Positions 1 to 42,927 of a stretch of DNA of 64,000 nt are shown in pieces. The stretch covers positions 3,680,290 to 3,744,289 of the forward strand of contig CAXXLO010000002.1 in NCBI GenBank assembly GCA_963664085.2, written 5' to 3'. Made by a program: the position numbers and the translations under genes. The notes below the pieces were generated by a model. The model saw only the letters and a program-made list of their open reading frames with translations, did not search any database and was not told the DNA's origin. This stretch comes from Caldilineaceae bacterium (lineage in GTDB: Bacteria > Chloroflexota > Anaerolineae > Caldilineales > Caldilineaceae). How positions within the stretch are numbered: the first letter of the stretch is position 1; every line of letters begins with the position of its first letter.

Positions 1-313
1 GAAGATGTGCAAGGACAAGCGCAAATGCGGATTTTCCCGTACCATAGTCTCCGGTAATTCGCCACGCCCGGCGGCCGGAGCCAGGTCGGAGCCCTTCAAG
101 CAAGCGGCAAAACTGCGCCACCATTGTGGGCGTAGCAACATAATTACTTAAAGATGTTGGATCACTAAAATCTCGTTCAAGATGTACCGAGCGCAAGTAG
201 CGCTCCGGAAGACGGAAAAGACTATCTATCCTGAGGCGAATACTGCCAAAGTCGTCAGTTCCTATACCCTCACGCTTCCGAAGCGTGGCGTGGGGAGGCT
301 GTGACTCAAACAT
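1..313 (-). CDS. P-loop NTPase, N-terminal part only (gene runs off the left edge); SspC-like by its position after the DUF4007 gene
   Basis: Not in the ORF track because it is truncated. My minus-strand translation from ATG 313..311 reads MFESQPPHATLRKREGIGTDDFGSIRLRIDSLFRLPERYLRSVHLERDFSDPTSLSNYVATPTMVAQFCRLLEGLRPGSGRRAWRITGDYGTGKSAFALVLAHL and stays open to position 1. Walker A GDYGTGKS lies at 52..29. The ATG overlaps the upstream stop (308..306) by 8 nt. Confidence 0.6.
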   Translation of the reverse strand, partial: MFESQPPHATLRKREGIGTDDFGSIRLRIDSLFRLPERYLRSVHLERDFSDPTSLSNYVATPTMVAQFCRLLEGLRPGSGRRAWRITGDYGTGKSAFALVLAHL

Positions 314-1235
314 TACATTCGCCCTCCAAGTAGATAGCATCCAGAAAATCCAGATTCACATCATTGTTGCGAGAGACCAACCCCTGGACGGCTGACGGCT
401 GGTAGTTATAGGGGCGGGATACATCGGGCTTTGTGTAGACGTCTAGGCGCGCACGTATATCGTCTTCCGGGAGCTTAAATGTCTGACCGATACTTCCCGT
501 TGCGAAAGCAACGTCGCGGTATGTAAGGGTGGCTTCTCCAGCGTGGCGCTTCTCCCAAAAATCGTTCAAACAATACTCAAAGAGGGCCGTGGTGATGTCG
601 GGCTTGGTTTCGCGACGAAAGGCATAGACCGGTTCTCTTCGTCCGGAACCGTCGACACGACGCTCCCCTGATACTTGAAGAATCTCCAACTCGGCCAGAG
701 GACAGTCTAGAGCTTCCTCAGAAGGCCGTGCGTTCCCTCCTCTGGGAACATAGGTGTGAAGAAAGACATCTAAGTGTTCACCCAAAGTGACTTCTGAGCG
801 GGACTGGTTCAGACGTCGTGACTCTCGGTTGAATGCAGAAAGGGCTTCGCTGCGGGTCAACTCAGCATATGGCCACTTATGAAATAGATAATCCCATGCG
901 AAAAGCGCGCCATCCGGGCGTGACGTAACATTCCAATGTAGTAGCCAAAGCGTTCGGATATCTTCCAAAAAGGGATCATATCCTGAGTCGGAAAAAATTG
1001 CGTTTCCAAAGGGGGTCGGTTTAAGTGTCCTGTTACTGCCGGGCTCCGCTACTCCCATTGTCTCGACCCAGAAACGTATAGAGCGGACCATATTCTTGCC
1101 GACTCCCAGGCGTACCATCGCGCGTTCTTGATCCGAAAAGATGCTCGGGTCTTCGACAATTGCATTGTAGCCTTTCGGCAGCCATGCGTAGCGACAGGCA
1201 AAGCTTTCATGTCCCGAATACCTATAACTATCCAT
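306..1235 (-). CDS. DUF4007 family protein (SspB-like component of Ssp-type DNA phosphorothioation)
   Basis: 309-aa ORF. The N-terminus YSGHESFACRYAWLPKGY fits my recollection of the DUF4007 signature. It lies between a cysteine desulfurase and a P-loop ATPase on the same strand. Confidence 0.65.
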   Translation of the reverse strand: MDSYRYSGHESFACRYAWLPKGYNAIVEDPSIFSDQERAMVRLGVGKNMVRSIRFWVETMGVAEPGSNRTLKPTPFGNAIFSDSGYDPFLEDIRTLWLLHWNVTSRPDGALFAWDYLFHKWPYAELTRSEALSAFNRESRRLNQSRSEVTLGEHLDVFLHTYVPRGGNARPSEEALDCPLAELEILQVSGERRVDGSGRREPVYAFRRETKPDITTALFEYCLNDFWEKRHAGEATLTYRDVAFATGSIGQTFKLPEDDIRARLDVYTKPDVSRPYNYQPSAVQGLVSRNNDVNLDFLDAIYLEGECNV

Positions 1236-1315
1236 CTTTCAAGACGATTCGAGGACCGAGGGATGATTTCCTGGGCAAGCGCCGAATTCGCCGATATAAA
1301 CATTGTCATGCATGG

Positions 1316-2485
1316 CTATCTTCCTAACACACTTTGGATAGAAAGTATTGCCTCAGAGATATACATTGCCGCTCGGTTTATCTCATCGTCGGTGGTGAAC
1401 TTTCCTATCCCAATGCGAATGGCTCCATCTTGTAAGGATTCCGACAGTCCCATCGCTTGAAGCACATGCGAGGGAACTTGGGTCGCTGATGAACATGCTG
1501 AGCCTGTGGACAGAGCGACAAGGTGGCGCAATCTGGCGATAATGGCGTCGTTCGGGACGCCAGGAACTGAGACATGAAGGTTGTTGACCAGACGATGCTG
1601 AAGATCACCATTTACTACAAGCCCTTCTATGTCGGCAATCAGAAGCTCTTGCAGCCGATTGCGCTGTGCCGCCATACGTGGCTCATCATGCGACATTGCG
1701 CAGCGAAGCAACTGACAAGCCTTTCCAAGGCCAACGATTCCTGGAACGTTAGGTGTGCCTTCCTTCACCCCCGGAACAACCCACTCCCCAGACCCGAAAC
1801 GAAATTCTGCGGGCATAACTAATGCGCCTATTCCTTTCGGGCCGTAAATCTTGTGCGCGCTTAACGTGAGATAAGCTATTCCCCATTCATATGCCTTTAG
1901 GGGGATGTGCCCCACCGCTTGGGTCGCATCGACAAGGGTCTGAGCCCCAGCGGACTCCACAAATCTTACAACATCCGCGATGGGGTAGATTGTTCCCACC
2001 TCATTGTTTGCAGCCATCACACAGACAAGGTCGATGCCGCTTTGACAGATTTCTCTCAAAGCGCCCACATCCAGTCGAGCTTGTTTGTCGACTGGAATCA
2101 GCCGCACACTTACTTCGCCTCGCTGCTCGTAAAACGCGACAGCATCTTGGACTGCCCGGTGTTCAACAGTCGACAACGCCACTCGAAGCTGCTTACGTCG
2201 TCTTGAAGCAACCGCGTGCGATATAGCGAGCCAGATGCTTTCCGTTGAACCGCTAGTAAAGTGAACTCCTTCTGACTCAGCACCCACCAATTCCGCAACC
2301 TCACGTCTAGCATGGGAGACTTGATCAGCCGCCACTTCACCGTAGACGTGCTCAACGCTATTCGCGTTCCCAAATGTAGTCGTCATAACATCCGAAATGA
2401 CAGCGACCACGCGGGGGTCTACAGGTGTGGTGGCATGATGGTCCAGGTAAATTGGGGGAGGAGTGGGTAAACTCACGCTATGCAT
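1316..2485 (-). CDS. Cysteine desulfurase (class V aminotransferase; SspA/DndA/IscS-like)
   Basis: 389 aa. It has the N-terminal LDHHATTPVD motif, the PLP-lysine motif SAHKIYGPKGIGAL and the active-site Cys loop STGSACSS. Confidence 0.9.
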   Translation of the reverse strand: MHSVSLPTPPPIYLDHHATTPVDPRVVAVISDVMTTTFGNANSVEHVYGEVAADQVSHARREVAELVGAESEGVHFTSGSTESIWLAISHAVASRRRKQLRVALSTVEHRAVQDAVAFYEQRGEVSVRLIPVDKQARLDVGALREICQSGIDLVCVMAANNEVGTIYPIADVVRFVESAGAQTLVDATQAVGHIPLKAYEWGIAYLTLSAHKIYGPKGIGALVMPAEFRFGSGEWVVPGVKEGTPNVPGIVGLGKACQLLRCAMSHDEPRMAAQRNRLQELLIADIEGLVVNGDLQHRLVNNLHVSVPGVPNDAIIARLRHLVALSTGSACSSATQVPSHVLQAMGLSESLQDGAIRIGIGKFTTDDEINRAAMYISEAILSIQSVLGR

Positions 2486-2577
2486 TGTTCAGCTTTGATT
2501 GGCTTTGTCAGGACAGGCAGTTTGTAAATGGCCCAAACTGGTAGACGGATCGTGGGCCGTAATAACTGGCATTCTTA

Positions 2578-2718
2578 GAAGCTGTTTGAAAAGTCATCAG
2601 GGTCGGCCACAAGGCTCAAAAACGACTTCCGAGAGGTGGCGATATCCTCTATCTGCACGTCACAATTCGCACCTCTGGTGCCGTTCCAGCCCTGACCTGA
2701 CCCTTTTCAAACAGGCTC
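2578..2718 (+). mobile_element. 141-bp MITE, a non-autonomous derivative of the IS5-family element at 34660..35520
   Basis: The ends GAAGCTGTTTGAAAAG ... CTTTTCAAACAGGCTC are inverted repeats and match the IS termini. It is flanked by TTA/TTA (2575..2577 and 2719..2721). A second copy with about 3 mismatches lies inverted at 42678..42818. Confidence 0.8.
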
Positions 2719-3662
2719 TTACGCGCCCTGTGAGGAAGAGAAGTGTAACGCCATACCGGAGGATTTTGGCCCCCCAATGTTATTCACCAGTGGAGCATAT
2801 CTGAGGGTCTAGCCATTCGTCCATAGTAGCCCTCCCGAACATTCGGCTGGCTCTTGCCTTCAGGGAAGGGATTTCTTCCAGCTAGACCGACCGTTCAAAA
2901 CAGGTCAGCAATAGATGCGAGACTGTCTTCAGAGGGTCTGACAGTCATTTGCCAGCCTCTCGCAAGAGCAATTATTGCTGTAATGGACGGTACGCAGATA
3001 CAGTGCTTGCATCCTAATCGTTACCTTGATATTGGTCAAGATTGGTAAGCCGCCGCCTCACGGGAAACGCCTGCCATTTCCGGTGGACTCCAGAAGGATG
3101 TCCAGACTATGGGTAGGATCCTAACACTCGACGGATGTGCTGGATTTAGCGATTGTTTAGCGACCCAGGAGGTTGAGTGCCATACACAGAAAAGTGGCTT
3201 TGAAATTCTGGACATGACCTTGGCGAATGGGGCGTTCATCCTTACTATGAACGATTCTGTCAGAATGAGATATCCGGCCCTGATTTCATACGCTCTGTTC
3301 ATCTCATCTGCGATCTCTTCATATATCTCTGGGTCGCGTACCTTACTGCACTTCTGCCCTATCGCCTTTCTACCCTTCCAACCATTTTTTGTCCGTCTCT
3401 ACAGCAAGTTTTCTTTCCACTCACTCTGAAGTATATCCTGATTTTCCCATGTCGTAGGCATCAGAGCCAGATTGGAGTATACTTCTCCAAGTAAATTTCA
3501 CCGCAGACAAATCCTGATGCATTCAACTCGATCTGATGTCCCGACAGCTTGCGTTTTAGTGTTGGGTTCAGAAGTTATCGCCTCCCCCAACGGACAACGC
3601 TTCTCAAGTCTAAAGCAATCAAAGTACGGCAAAGTTGTGTCCTCTTGACCTTCCGGGGAACC

Positions 3663-4553
3663 ATGATGGACAGAGAATCAGTTCTTGAGAAATTCAAGAC
3701 GTTGAATCTCTTTAGAAATGACGGAGTAAGGGCACCGCACAAGCCCCTGCTGGTAATCCTCGCCATCGGTGAATTGCTGCGGGGCAAGGGACGCCTGCTG
3801 CCATATTCTGAGATCGACACCAAACTTGGAAAGCTACTGAGCGAGTACGGCCCCAGGCGGACGAGCCAAGGAACACAGTACCCGTTTTGGCGGCTTCAAA
3901 ATGACGGCATTTGGATCGTTTCCGATGCCAAGAGGGTTCGCCGAACAGGCAGTGGGGACGCATTCAAGAGGGATTTGATCGACTACAATGTTCATGGAGG
4001 ATTTACCAAGGAAATGGCCAGCCTACTTCAGGCAGACTCTGATCTCTCTATTGAAATTGTTCAGGGATTGTTGGACGGGCACTTTCCAGACACGTGGCAT
4101 GAAGACATTTTGCAGAGTGCCGGGATCGAGCTGACTGCTAAAGGCGTCATTCGCCAGAGACGCGACCCGAAGTTTCGGGAGAATATCTTGAAAGCCTATG
4201 AGTATCGCTGCGCCGTATGCGGCTTCGACGTGAGATTGGGGCTTCAGCCTGTCGCTTTGGAGGCCGCCCACATAAAATGGCATCAAGCCGGAGGCCCCGA
4301 TGTAGAAGTGAACGGACTGGCGCTATGTTCGCTTCACCACAAACTATTCGACCGCGGCGCTTTCACATTGTCCGACGAACTGGAGATTCTCGTTTCCGAA
4401 AACGCGCATGGTTCCGCAGGCTTTCAGGAGTGGCTAATGCGTTTCCATGGTGAGAAGCTCAACTTTCCACAGCGACAGACCTACTATCCCAACGCAGACT
4501 ACACCCACTGGCACCTAAACGAAGTGTTTCAGGGAGACTATCGCGAACGCTGA
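3663..4553 (+). CDS. HNH endonuclease with an N-terminal putative modified-DNA (phosphorothioate) binding domain
   Basis: The ORF track gives 3549..4553 from a TTG; I prefer ATG 3663 (MMDRESV..). The HNH core is YRCAVCGFD...EAAHIKWHQAGGPDVEVNGLALCSLHHKLFDRGAF. The N-domain APHKPLLVILAIGELL...QYPFWRLQNDGIWIV resembles, from memory, SBD-HNH type IV enzymes. Confidence 0.6.
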   Translation: MMDRESVLEKFKTLNLFRNDGVRAPHKPLLVILAIGELLRGKGRLLPYSEIDTKLGKLLSEYGPRRTSQGTQYPFWRLQNDGIWIVSDAKRVRRTGSGDAFKRDLIDYNVHGGFTKEMASLLQADSDLSIEIVQGLLDGHFPDTWHEDILQSAGIELTAKGVIRQRRDPKFRENILKAYEYRCAVCGFDVRLGLQPVALEAAHIKWHQAGGPDVEVNGLALCSLHHKLFDRGAFTLSDELEILVSENAHGSAGFQEWLMRFHGEKLNFPQRQTYYPNADYTHWHLNEVFQGDYRER

Positions 4554-4844: not shown

Positions 4845-6257
4845 ATGAGGAGAAAAATCGTGAGAAACTGGGGTCTTGGCCGCGGGAAATGGGTGTTTGT
4901 CGACTGGATTGGCGTGGAACCGGGCTACGGTACGGAGTGGGGCGGCGCAGTTAGCGAGGGCTGGAGCGTTCCACATGGGATAACGCTCAAAGTCCACGAG
5001 CCCACGGTAGATCCCTCGCCGGTGATCGTTGCCGACCGGCCCTGGGAGCAGGGCTATATATCTCCGTACTCGACGTTTCTTGAGGATGGAGGGACGCTCC
5101 GGTGCTGGTACGAAAACGGCGGCGGAATCGGCTATGCCGAGTCGCACGACGGCGTCGAATGGGAGAAACCGAACCTGGGCCTTCAGGCGTGGAACGGGTC
5201 GACCGACAACAACCTGATCGACATTAACCGTCACGGCCACGGCATCTTTATCGATCCCGCATCCGCCCCGTCCGAACGGTACAAAATGGTCAGCTGCCAC
5301 TGGACCGAGACCGAGCGTAAGGTCCTTGGCGCCATTTCCGCGGACGGCCTGCACTGGACGCCCATGGTCATGCCTATTATGGAGTATCAGCATGCCGACA
5401 CCCAGAACATTGGCCACTACGATGTGGAAAGGGCCGAATATATACTCTACACCCGCCAGATGGATGGGAAGTCGAACCGCCGCGGCGTCAACCCTGTGGC
5501 AACGGACAGCTTTCGGCGCTTTGAAAAGTCCGTACCGGTCTTGGAGAACAGTCCACTGGACGCGCCGGACGTGGATATCTACTGCAACGGCTACTCCCCC
5601 TGGCCCGGCGCAACGGACGCGCATCTGATGCGGCTCTCCATGTACGAGCGCACGCCCGACACGATGAACGTCCATCTGGCCACCAGCCGCGACGGCATCG
5701 CCTGGCACAGGCCCCAGGGCCGTAACGCCTGGATCGAAACGGTGCCATCCGCCCAGGGAGCATACAAGACGGTCTATGCCTGCGCCGGGGTTGTGCCGAC
5801 GGGCGCGGGGGAGTGGTCCACGTACGTTGGCGTGAACCGGATGTTGCACAACGAACCGGTGGAACGGAGGACGGGCGCGCCGGGCGAGTCGGGGCTGGTA
5901 CGCGCGGCGGTGCGCGAGGACGGGTTCGTCTCGGTTTCCAGCCGGGGGCGCGGCGGCTTCTGGACGGTTCCTTTCGAGCTGAACTCGGATTCGATCGGCA
6001 TCAATGCGGATACCCTTTATTCCGGCTTCCTGCGCTGCCAGATCCTGTCCTCCAGTCCCGGAGACGTCGGCAGCGACACTCGGTTCATCCACACCATCGA
6101 GGGCTACACGCTTGAAGAGTGCCAGCCGATAGTCGGGAATCAGATTGACGCTCCTCTAACGTGGAACGGAAGCGCCGACTTGAGCCAACTGCGGGGCCAG
6201 ACAGTCCGCCTCAGGTTTGACTTGTACAAGGCTGATCTGTACGCAATAAAGTTCTAA
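4845..6257 (+). CDS. Beta-propeller glycoside-hydrolase-like protein, paralogue 1 (function unknown)
   Basis: 470 aa. It has a blade motif GYAESHDGVEWEKPNLG and a C-terminal beta-sandwich-like tail (EDGFVSVSS...LRFDLYKADLYAIKF) shared with 7424, 12791 and 43206. Confidence 0.75.
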   Translation: MRRKIVRNWGLGRGKWVFVDWIGVEPGYGTEWGGAVSEGWSVPHGITLKVHEPTVDPSPVIVADRPWEQGYISPYSTFLEDGGTLRCWYENGGGIGYAESHDGVEWEKPNLGLQAWNGSTDNNLIDINRHGHGIFIDPASAPSERYKMVSCHWTETERKVLGAISADGLHWTPMVMPIMEYQHADTQNIGHYDVERAEYILYTRQMDGKSNRRGVNPVATDSFRRFEKSVPVLENSPLDAPDVDIYCNGYSPWPGATDAHLMRLSMYERTPDTMNVHLATSRDGIAWHRPQGRNAWIETVPSAQGAYKTVYACAGVVPTGAGEWSTYVGVNRMLHNEPVERRTGAPGESGLVRAAVREDGFVSVSSRGRGGFWTVPFELNSDSIGINADTLYSGFLRCQILSSSPGDVGSDTRFIHTIEGYTLEECQPIVGNQIDAPLTWNGSADLSQLRGQTVRLRFDLYKADLYAIKF

Positions 6258-42672: not shown

Positions 42673-42677
42673 ATCTA

Positions 42678-42818
42678 GAGCCTGTTTGAAAAGGGTCAGG
42701 TCAGGGCTGGAACGGCACCAGAGGTGCGAATTGTGACGTGCAGATAGAGGATATCGCCGCCTCTCGGAAGTCGTTTTTGAGCCTTGTGGCCGACACTGAT
42801 AACTTTTCAAACAGCTTC
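42678..42818 (-). mobile_element. Second copy of the 141-bp MITE (inverted relative to 2578..2718)
   Basis: The sequence runs GAGCCTGTTTGAAAAGGGTCAGG...CTTTTCAAACAGCTTC. It is flanked by TA/TA within cTA|..|TAg and starts 5 nt after the res stop. Confidence 0.8.
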
Positions 42819-42927
42819 TAGGATGCGAAAACTCTTGGTTTCAAATTGAACGCACATGAGTTTCCGATTATCAGATAACTATTATATTGCTGTGGATAAG
42901 CGCTGTTCTGTCTCTTGAAAAATTTTT

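Follow-up and report, generated by a model that had tools for sequence, protein, structure and literature searches.

A composite phosphorothioate defence island in a Caldilineaceae genome unites Ssp writer genes with an SBD-HNH nuclease and two further candidate partner modules

We analyzed a 64,000-nucleotide stretch of the genome of a Caldilineaceae bacterium (hereafter the window; G000:C2:3680290-3744289), along with the 20 kb to its left (L001), focusing on a gene for a two-domain nuclease that joins a sulfur-binding domain (SBD) to an HNH domain and lies beside genes of SspABCD, a system for single-strand phosphorothioate (PT) modification of DNA. These genes are part of a composite PT defence island of ~17.5 kb, real and intact, and the window begins inside its right-hand part. 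The GC content is ~52% from L001:~7000 to window position ~4550, and ~62% on either side. Ten of the 11 island genes are closely packed on the minus strand, in the order sspA, sspB, sspC, a gene for a GHKL kinase-like protein, a gene for a receiver protein of 707 amino acids (aa), sspD, SNF2, ParB_N, ParB-HTH and a metallo-beta-lactamase (MBL) gene, while the SBD-HNH gene stands divergently on the plus strand. An earlier sequence-only reading of the window had recognized the writer genes and the nuclease, and all open reading frames it listed exist where it had placed them, although the island is larger than it could see and includes two additional candidate Ssp partner modules. The features are as follows, in window positions unless otherwise given.

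1..313, minus strand: 5' end of sspC, encoding a BrxC-like P-loop ATPase (PADLOC SspC 102 bits)
306..1235, minus strand: sspB, encoding a DUF4007 protein of 309 aa (Pfam PF13182 216 bits, cut-off 27; PADLOC SspB 360 bits)
1316..2485, minus strand: sspA, encoding a cysteine desulfurase of 389 aa (Pfam Aminotran_5 1.2e-57; PADLOC SspA 370 bits)
2486..3665, no strand: spacer of 1.18 kb between the divergent sspA and SBD-HNH genes
2573..2722, no strand: element of ~146 bp resembling a miniature inverted-repeat transposable element (MITE), with 17-nt terminal inverted repeats (arms 2577-2593 and 2703-2719)
3666..4553, plus strand: two-domain SBD-HNH nuclease of 295 aa (NCBIfam NF045808); an alternative ATG at 3663 gives 296 aa
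4572..4680, plus strand: right junction duplicate, a 109-bp copy of 5564-5672 (98% over 109 nt, blastn)
G000:C2:3671534-3672349 (L001:11245-12060), minus strand: sspD, PAPS-reductase-like (PADLOC SspD 387 bits, full length; Pfam PAPS_reduct)
Left flank, minus strand: SNF2 helicase, 473 aa
Left flank, minus strand: ParB_N protein, 272 aa
Left flank, minus strand: HTH_ParB protein, 237 aa
Left flank, minus strand: MBL-fold nuclease (Lactamase_B_2), 341-351 aa

For the writer genes, the sspA-sspB-sspC order that had been proposed from the sequence was borne out by Pfam and PADLOC matches on all three, including the assignment of the 309-aa protein to DUF4007. The sspA product scores alike on the PADLOC profiles for SspA (370 bits) and DndA (369 bits), and its NCBIfam matches to DndA, NifS and IscS are all under the equivalog cut-offs; it has the pyridoxal phosphate lysine in SAHKIYGPKG and the catalytic cysteine in STGSACSS. 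The full sspC gene extends to G000:C2:3677036 (L001:16747) and encodes 1188 aa with the Walker A motif GDYGTGKS, the left-flank part matching PADLOC profile positions 80-1052 (1214 bits) and the window part covering positions 1-66. The sspD gene predicted beyond the window was found ~8 kb to its left, with the SGGKDS motif and cysteine pairs, but it does not directly follow sspC: the kinase-like and receiver genes lie in between, and a contiguous sspB-C-D order is thus not seen. Relatives (L103-L105) display the identical insertion between sspC and sspD, and in another (L106) the pair comes after a divergent sspA. The motifs of SspA, SspC and SspD are all intact, and the four proteins would constitute a writer placing single-strand PT marks on host DNA. 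Elsewhere in this genome (G000:C2:5012935-5018850), a second Ssp cluster of another subtype consists of a divergent sspA followed by sspB and sspC, in which sspC ends ~115 residues early at an IS3-family transposase and sspD is not detectable; this cluster is probably inactivated. Near it, at G000:C2:5007466-5009979, a three-gene cassette headed by a QueC-like PP-loop protein (SGGIDS) adjoins an IS5-like element and may represent another defence module.

The nuclease matches the NCBIfam model NF045808 ("phosphorothioated DNA-binding restriction endonuclease") at 347.1 bits, for a cut-off of 180, over profile positions 4-284 of 284. Its N-terminal sulfur-binding winged helix-turn-helix (wHTH) domain takes up residues ~1-150 and its C-terminal HNH domain residues ~165-290 (Pfam HNH_2, 9.8e-12). 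The suspicion that the N-terminal domain is a ScoMcrA-type SBD was confirmed: residues 23-140 align with the ScoMcrA SBD structures 5zmm and 5zmo (E-values of 3.7e-13 and 1.2e-9), residues 6-153 align with 7cc9, 7ccj and 7ccd, which are chains of 163-169 residues deposited as "HNHc domain-containing protein", and the representative of its 99%-identity cluster, as well as relatives, carry precomputed PF26340 (DNA-SBD_ScoMcrA) and PF13391 annotations. The HNH part aligns with TagI (6ghs). In an alignment with 20 homologues at 65-87% identity, PHKP, YPFWRL and CxxC...H...N...CSLHH are invariant, as are the HNH core residues C183, C186, H203, N217, C222, H225 and H226; Lutz et al. 2020 (PMC7461809) singled out "HK" and "YP" as residues for recognition of the sulfur. 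Judged from these features, the gene product is a bona fide SprMcrA/EcoWI-type SBD-HNH enzyme, which would be expected to cleave DNA in a PT-dependent manner.

The spacer before the nuclease gene has no nucleotide homology to the equivalent spacers of two related islands (G034 and G038, see below), and its open reading frames have no family matches, although ~220 bp upstream of the nuclease gene are shared with a solitary copy in another genome (L003). The MITE that had been proposed between operon and nuclease gene was supported by its inverted repeats and by four further genomic copies at 97-99% identity, one of which lies at window position ~42677-42823. Two of the five copies adjoin defence genes. 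Within the minus-strand block, an 80-nt gap separates sspA from sspB, the overlap of 8 nt noted earlier between sspB and sspC is real (ATGTTTGA), ATGA forms both the sspC/kinase-like and the kinase-like/707-aa junctions, a 107-nt gap containing GGAGG precedes sspD, sspD and SNF2 overlap by 22 nt, gaps of 30 nt and 3 nt follow SNF2 and the first ParB gene, respectively, and TGATG joins the second ParB gene to MBL. The minus-strand genes are thus mostly translationally coupled. At the right-hand junction, the GC content climbs from ~52% to ~60%, the homology to G034 and G038 stops at the nuclease stop codon, and the 109-bp duplicate, whose source is an internal piece of the neighboring 470-aa gene, starts ~20 nt past this stop codon and marks the junction. 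We found no tRNA in the 20 kb left of the window and no integrase at the island borders. When the left flank was checked for the described restriction partners, no PADLOC match to SspE, SspF, SspG or SspH was obtained among the 11 island proteins, and GmrSD_C matches in the genome occur only at 1.33 and 5.19 Mb, distant from the island. DndC and DndE are absent from the genome, which is 98% complete, and it therefore holds no double-strand PT writer.

Next, we compared the island with those of two other species of the same genus. G034 and G038 carry the identical 11 genes in the identical order, including the divergent SBD-HNH gene. Nucleotide homology among the three islands stops exactly at the MBL and nuclease stop codons, and flank mapping places them at three different chromosomal sites, the one in G038 being a hotspot that corresponds to the further defence island which this genome carries at 0.76 Mb. 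The island moves horizontally as one unit. Relative to G034 and G038, amino acid identity of the window proteins is 93-95% for SspD, 73-89% for SspA, SspB (78-81%), SspC, SNF2, ParB1, ParB2 and MBL, 70-73% for SBD-HNH, 46-47% for the kinase-like protein and 33% for the 707-aa protein. Ratios of non-synonymous to synonymous divergence (dN/dS; Nei-Gojobori, three species) were 0.04-0.31 for all island genes and 0.11-0.14 for SBD-HNH, i.e., every island gene is under purifying selection and none is decaying. Just past the MBL end of the island, both congeners carry a C-terminal fragment of an SspA-like protein (39-44% identity; G034:C1:~2380006-2380209 and G038:C40:26661-26960), and this cysteine-desulfurase fragment may be what is left of an insertion target or an older cluster.

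Synonymous divergence (dS) was unevenly distributed along the island. For the kinase/receiver pair, dS is saturated against both congeners, yet amounts to 0.58 between them, and sspC and sspD on either side of this slot (L001:12168-16750) are 77-95% identical, compared to 33-47% for the pair. The kinase/receiver genes form a cassette that is hypervariable or exchangeable, within an operon that is conserved. For SBD-HNH, dS against G034 and G038 is 1.4-1.9, roughly double the 0.4-1.0 of the ssp genes. Both patterns point to replacement of alleles or cassettes within fixed slots.

The kinase-like protein (820-850 aa) combines a HATPase_c_3 domain (paraMORC GHKL, 56 bits), a DHp-like helix pair and a C-terminal HATPase_c domain (70 bits), with a HEF_HK match of 20 bits that is below the cut-off of 24.1. 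The 707-aa protein received no family from PADLOC, Pfam and NCBIfam scans, and no match to PF19192 (Response_reg_2) even at E ≤ 1. Its family comprises 84 proteins in 5.8 billion, none with a name or a Pfam domain. Across 45 homologues, the N-terminus conserves the canonical quintet of receiver residues (D25/D26, D144, S183/S184 and K211). A Foldseek search of its AlphaFold model (pLDDT 80) against the PDB had no match at E ≤ 0.001, and the family profile found nothing under E = 0.1 among PDB sequences; the N-terminal receiver domain is the only recognizable part of the model, with the receiver protein AmiR as top-probability fold (probability 0.96). A likeness of the beta-rich C-terminus to the ERCC1 central domain was faint and not significant, and was set aside.

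Four diverse homologues of the 707-aa protein (28-60% identity) all adjoin a HATPase_c_3+HATPase_c protein, in or beside ssp clusters. The usual order at these loci is sspA-B-C-kinase-receiver-sspD, the downstream genes vary each time, and no SBD-HNH gene was found within 10 kb of the pair. Among Caldilineaceae genomes, members of the 707-aa family are confined to the three that carry the island. This pair, found only inside or beside ssp clusters, is a candidate Ssp partner. It resembles the HEF_HK/Response_reg_2 pairs (Bellieny-Rabelo 2021, PMC8011034), described as "two-component-like" and linked both to restriction-modification systems and to ATPases of the paraMORC type, in its kinase-like layout, its adjoining cytoplasmic receiver protein and its DNA-modification/restriction context. 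Unlike these, however, it scores below the HEF_HK cut-off, has no PF19192 match and is embedded in an Ssp operon; a PT context is not mentioned in that paper (0 occurrences of phosphorothio-, DUF4007 or PAPS). Two other proteins were compared with the island's kinase-like protein. A 633-aa HATPase_c protein encoded between sspD and SBD-HNH in L007-type loci matches the island's 850-aa protein in the GHKL motif only (E-value of 0.036), and was treated as a different GHKL ATPase. In Latescibacterota (L014/L094:7346-10888), a bare module of two genes, a paraMORC-kinase-like gene (790 aa) followed by SBD-HNH, stands among housekeeping genes with neither ssp genes nor a receiver protein, and its kinase-like protein is 37% identical to that of the island.

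The second additional module is the SNF2-ParB-ParB-MBL set. Its MBL protein has 933 homologues, some fused to a ParB-HTH domain, and the genes of three distant members all adjoin PT writers: one follows sspCD-pbeABCD, one lies beside a PAPS reductase gene and one follows dndCDE. In a fourth Caldilineaceae genome, this MBL gene is located downstream of the genome's sspB, at a distance of 7 kb. At L109:2979-13924, SNF2-ParB_N-236 aa-MBL comes after dndC-dndD-dndE, with a HATPase_c_3 protein and a PP_RS20740-family protein next in line, which indicates that the same accessory cassette serves a Dnd writer too. Like PbeABCD (Xiong 2019, PMC6459918), the set comprises four genes, is led by an SF2 helicase and comes after Dnd or Ssp writers. 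An identity with PbeABCD was nevertheless ruled out: the latter consists of the PLD-helicase PbeA, PbeB (66 aa), the SMC-like PbeC and PbeD (152 aa), whereas the window set has an SNF2 protein without PLD, ParB_N, ParB-HTH and an MBL nuclease, and no SMC/AAA_23 gene. True PbeABCD is present in other relatives (L031/L095 and L107), in L107 together with ParB-x-MBL.

We then evaluated how often SBD-HNH and ssp genes are neighbors elsewhere, in surveys whose counts exceed the number of independent events, as kin genomes are not independent. Among 80 SBD-HNH loci sampled by similarity from species-representative genomes, with ssp genes sought within 10 kb (tblastn), 34 had ssp genes within this distance, in two co-directional architectures: sspB-C-D followed by SBD-HNH, often only 25-50 bp past sspD, and SBD-HNH followed by sspB-C-D. 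The nuclease tree has a clade, with good support, of 44 proteins encoded by metagenome-assembled genomes of sponge-symbiont type, 31 of them ssp-linked, and the ssp-linkage label requires ~10 changes, compared to 26 when labels are shuffled. The pairing of writer and reader recurs in many sponge-symbiont genomes. For 151 Poribacteria species genomes, the nuclease was above the cut-off in 73, SspB was present in 96, and both were present in 43, for 46 expected under independence (Fisher p = 0.31). When both genes were present, they were ≤15 kb apart and on the same strand in 34 of the 43 genomes, with SBD-HNH directly upstream of sspB in 20 of these and downstream of sspD in 14. SBD-HNH thus adjoins SspB in 35% of SspB-bearing Poribacteria genomes. 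Among 151 Caldilineaceae genomes, 52 encode the nuclease, 38 encode SspB and 19 encode both, the two genes being ≤6 kb apart in four of the 19 and ≤25 kb apart in seven. In the window's own genus, both genes co-occur in 8 genomes, against 8.75 expected. Overall, there is neither avoidance nor attraction at the genome level, and strong physical linkage once both genes are present. The operon architectures, at least two in number, and the divergent arrangement of the window have distinct origins.

The nuclease also occurs on its own. It is found without SspB in 30 of the 73 nuclease-bearing Poribacteria genomes and in 33 of the 52 Caldilineaceae ones. In the tree, the window copy is the sole ssp-linked member of a Caldilineaceae subclade of nine proteins. 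The relative closest to it, L003 at 86% identity, stands alone: no ssp genes accompany it, its neighbors are SIR2, PLD and AAA_15 defence genes, and its site is a hotspot syntenic with the 0.76-Mb island of this genome. This genome holds three intact SBD-HNH paralogues and one fragment, with three different cassettes beside them. The two intact paralogues outside the window (61% and 68% identity; G000:C2:764466-770699 and 772928-778814) both sit in the 0.76-Mb region, a large low-GC defence island at a hotspot common to related species. One of them heads a cassette of a 266-aa protein, two BrxD-like proteins and an SNF2 protein (684 aa), and the other heads a C5-methylase + PDC-M33A/B/C (DUF6339) cassette.

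These modules can be set against published PT systems. With SspABCD-SspE and SspBCD-SspFGH (Xiong 2020; Wang 2021, PMC8092258; PMC9646914), the island shares the SspA/B/C/D writer set and the presence of accessory restriction genes, but it has no SspE-H homologue, its sspC and sspD are split by two genes, and its accessory genes are the kinase/receiver pair, SNF2-ParB-ParB-MBL and SBD-HNH. With ScoMcrA, SprMcrA and EcoWI (Liu 2018; Yu 2018; Lutz 2020, PMC7461809), the nuclease shares the full-length SBD and HNH domains, the HK/YP pocket and the HNH core, although, unlike ScoMcrA, it lacks an SRA domain. According to PMC7461809, members of the SBD-HNH family are seldom found together with PT writers (<3.6% lie near dnd), whereas the clade of the window nuclease is frequently found in sspBCD operons. 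A further parallel is a wHTH(SBD)+SAD(SRA)+HNH nuclease beside Dnd in 698 taxa (Rakesh, Aravind & Krishnan 2024, PMC10853773), likewise a PT reader next to a PT writer, located downstream of DndABCDE and proposed as an alternative restriction component; an SBD-SAD-HNH nuclease was also noted near BREX (PMC12839542). Here, by contrast, the writer is Ssp (ORC/Cdc6-like SspC and SspB) rather than DndCDE, and the nuclease has two domains, without SAD/SRA. The proposal of the sequence-only reading that this reader could be a new kind of partner therefore holds in part: a PT-reading HNH protein by a PT writer is already published for Dnd, whereas no paper on a two-domain SBD-HNH in an sspBCD operon was found in the literature searched, the coverage of which is incomplete. 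The same search yielded no paper on a kinase/receiver pair embedded in ssp operons, nor on an SNF2-ParB-ParB-MBL cassette, the latter not being mentioned by Rakesh et al. 2024 (PMC10853773) either.

What, then, does a PT-dependent nuclease do beside a PT writer? With moderate confidence, we interpret it as a type IV restriction enzyme that is PT-dependent and autonomous, tolerates the single-strand marks of Ssp and is often co-transferred with the writer. SspABCD would mark host DNA with single-strand PT. The winged-helix SBD of the nuclease would dock on PT-DNA and the HNH domain would cut nearby, destroying incoming DNA whose PT pattern is foreign, either by being double-stranded or by its sequence context, and sparing the host's own hemi-modified Ssp sites. 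Targets would include PT-marked phages and plasmids that escape the other arms of the island, which are presumed to attack unmarked DNA. Since only mutually compatible writer-reader pairs would be safe to transfer, selection for co-transfer could explain their frequent linkage. In the literature, ScoMcrA, SprMcrA and EcoWI cleave DNA that bears PT and restrict dnd+ plasmids (PMC7461809), and only the promiscuous Hga is reported to recognize the Ssp mark CpsCA, restricting hemi-modified CpsCA 10-fold, compared to 1000-fold for double-strand PT (PMC10602919). Considered with the many solitary copies, the lack of a Dnd writer in this genome and the chance-level co-occurrence of the two genes, this makes a type IV enzyme directed against foreign PT the most economical reading.

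Several observations nonetheless weigh against a type IV enzyme that is merely compatible with its neighbor. Such an enzyme requires no cognate writer, and the Poribacteria operons with 25-50-bp gaps after sspD suggest more than compatibility, and would also fit an effector that senses PT and requires the host's marks. In the window, 1.18 kb of unconserved spacer, including a MITE, separate the divergent nuclease gene from sspA, a layout that lends no support to co-regulation. The ssp genes show about half the dS of the nuclease gene, which in G038 is followed by sequence matching the C5-methylase cassette found after paralogue 3 in this genome, so that the nuclease slot swaps alleles and may belong to neighboring cassettes as much as to Ssp.

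The main rival follows from the operons just mentioned: the nuclease could be a dedicated PT-sensing effector of Ssp, writer-dependent in the manner of SspE, whose SBD binds host PT marks, these in turn licensing or positioning the nicking or cutting of unmodified invader DNA, and would then constitute a third class of Ssp restriction partner. This we hold to be rather improbable, even if both co-directional architectures, which together account for 34 of the 43 co-occurring Poribacteria genomes, and the retention of the nuclease at the island edge through three relocations speak in its favor, as do the same role proposed by Rakesh et al. 2024 for SBD-SAD-HNH downstream of Dnd writers (PMC10853773) and the ~84% of sspBCD clusters that have no known restriction partner, for which Wang et al. 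2021 asked whether others exist (PMC8092258). A writer-dependent effector is, however, disfavored by the many nuclease-bearing genomes without SspB in Poribacteria and Caldilineaceae alike, the absence of enrichment at the genome level, the three paralogues in this genome, two of which stand beside non-PT cassettes, and the activity of ScoMcrA, SprMcrA and EcoWI, which cut PT-DNA and not unmodified DNA (PMC7461809). Ordinary defence-island clustering, in which a self-mobile solitary SBD-HNH cassette landed by an Ssp island to which it is functionally unrelated, seems less likely again. The isolated position of the window copy as the only ssp-linked one in its nine-member subclade, the nearest copy in a different island without ssp, sharing 220 bp upstream, the divergent arrangement with its MITE and unconserved spacer, and the doubled dS would all be accounted for by such a landing. 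It would leave unexplained that the divergent nuclease/sspA arrangement was kept in three species at three sites, with homology ending exactly at the nuclease stop codon, that two independent operonic architectures exist in other phyla, and that in 7 of the 19 Caldilineaceae genomes encoding both, the two genes are no more than 25 kb apart.

A true conflict between writer and reader, in which one of the two is inactive (Ssp being silent or without function, or the nuclease catalytically dead or under tight repression), is very improbable. Lutz et al. 2020 explained rare dnd/SBD-HNH neighborhoods in this way (PMC7461809), and the second ssp cluster of this genome is degraded, with its sspC cut by the IS3-type transposase and its sspD undetected. 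In the island itself, however, none of the 11 genes is disrupted and purifying selection acts on each of them in the three-species comparison, the catalytic and sulfur-binding residues are all invariant, and the SspA, SspC and SspD motifs are complete. The sequence-only reading had named a self-toxic conflict as the other option for this locus, which is unlikely given the linkage in 34 of 43 Poribacteria genomes, its retention in three species and the selection on all genes; its further suggestion, that the pair is tolerated because sequence contexts differ, had already been published (PMC7461809).

Returning to a type IV enzyme that tolerates Ssp marks, the island could also be regarded as a whole. 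It is tempting, although doubtful as a joint claim, to view it as a PT immune unit of four modules, with Ssp as the source of marks and three distinct, largely undescribed partner sets as their readers, namely SBD-HNH, a phosphorelay and SNF2-ParB-ParB-MBL. Under this view, SBD-HNH would police foreign PT patterns; a DNA-clamping paraMORC GHKL sensor-kinase would phosphorylate a receiver with a novel output domain, and this relay would trigger an effector response upon a signal of DNA or PT status, its alleles being swapped like those of a hypervariable cassette; and SNF2-ParB-ParB-MBL would serve both Ssp and Dnd writers. If so, the three sets would explain part of the ~84% "orphan" sspBCD clusters.

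Overall, the island and its relatives provide three concrete candidates for Ssp partners with comparative support. They also bear on the paradox of a PT writer and a PT-dependent nuclease sharing one genome: since the two genes co-occur at chance level, without avoidance, and usually lie in one operon when both are present, this suggests that the single-strand marks of Ssp are compatible with SBD-HNH readers.

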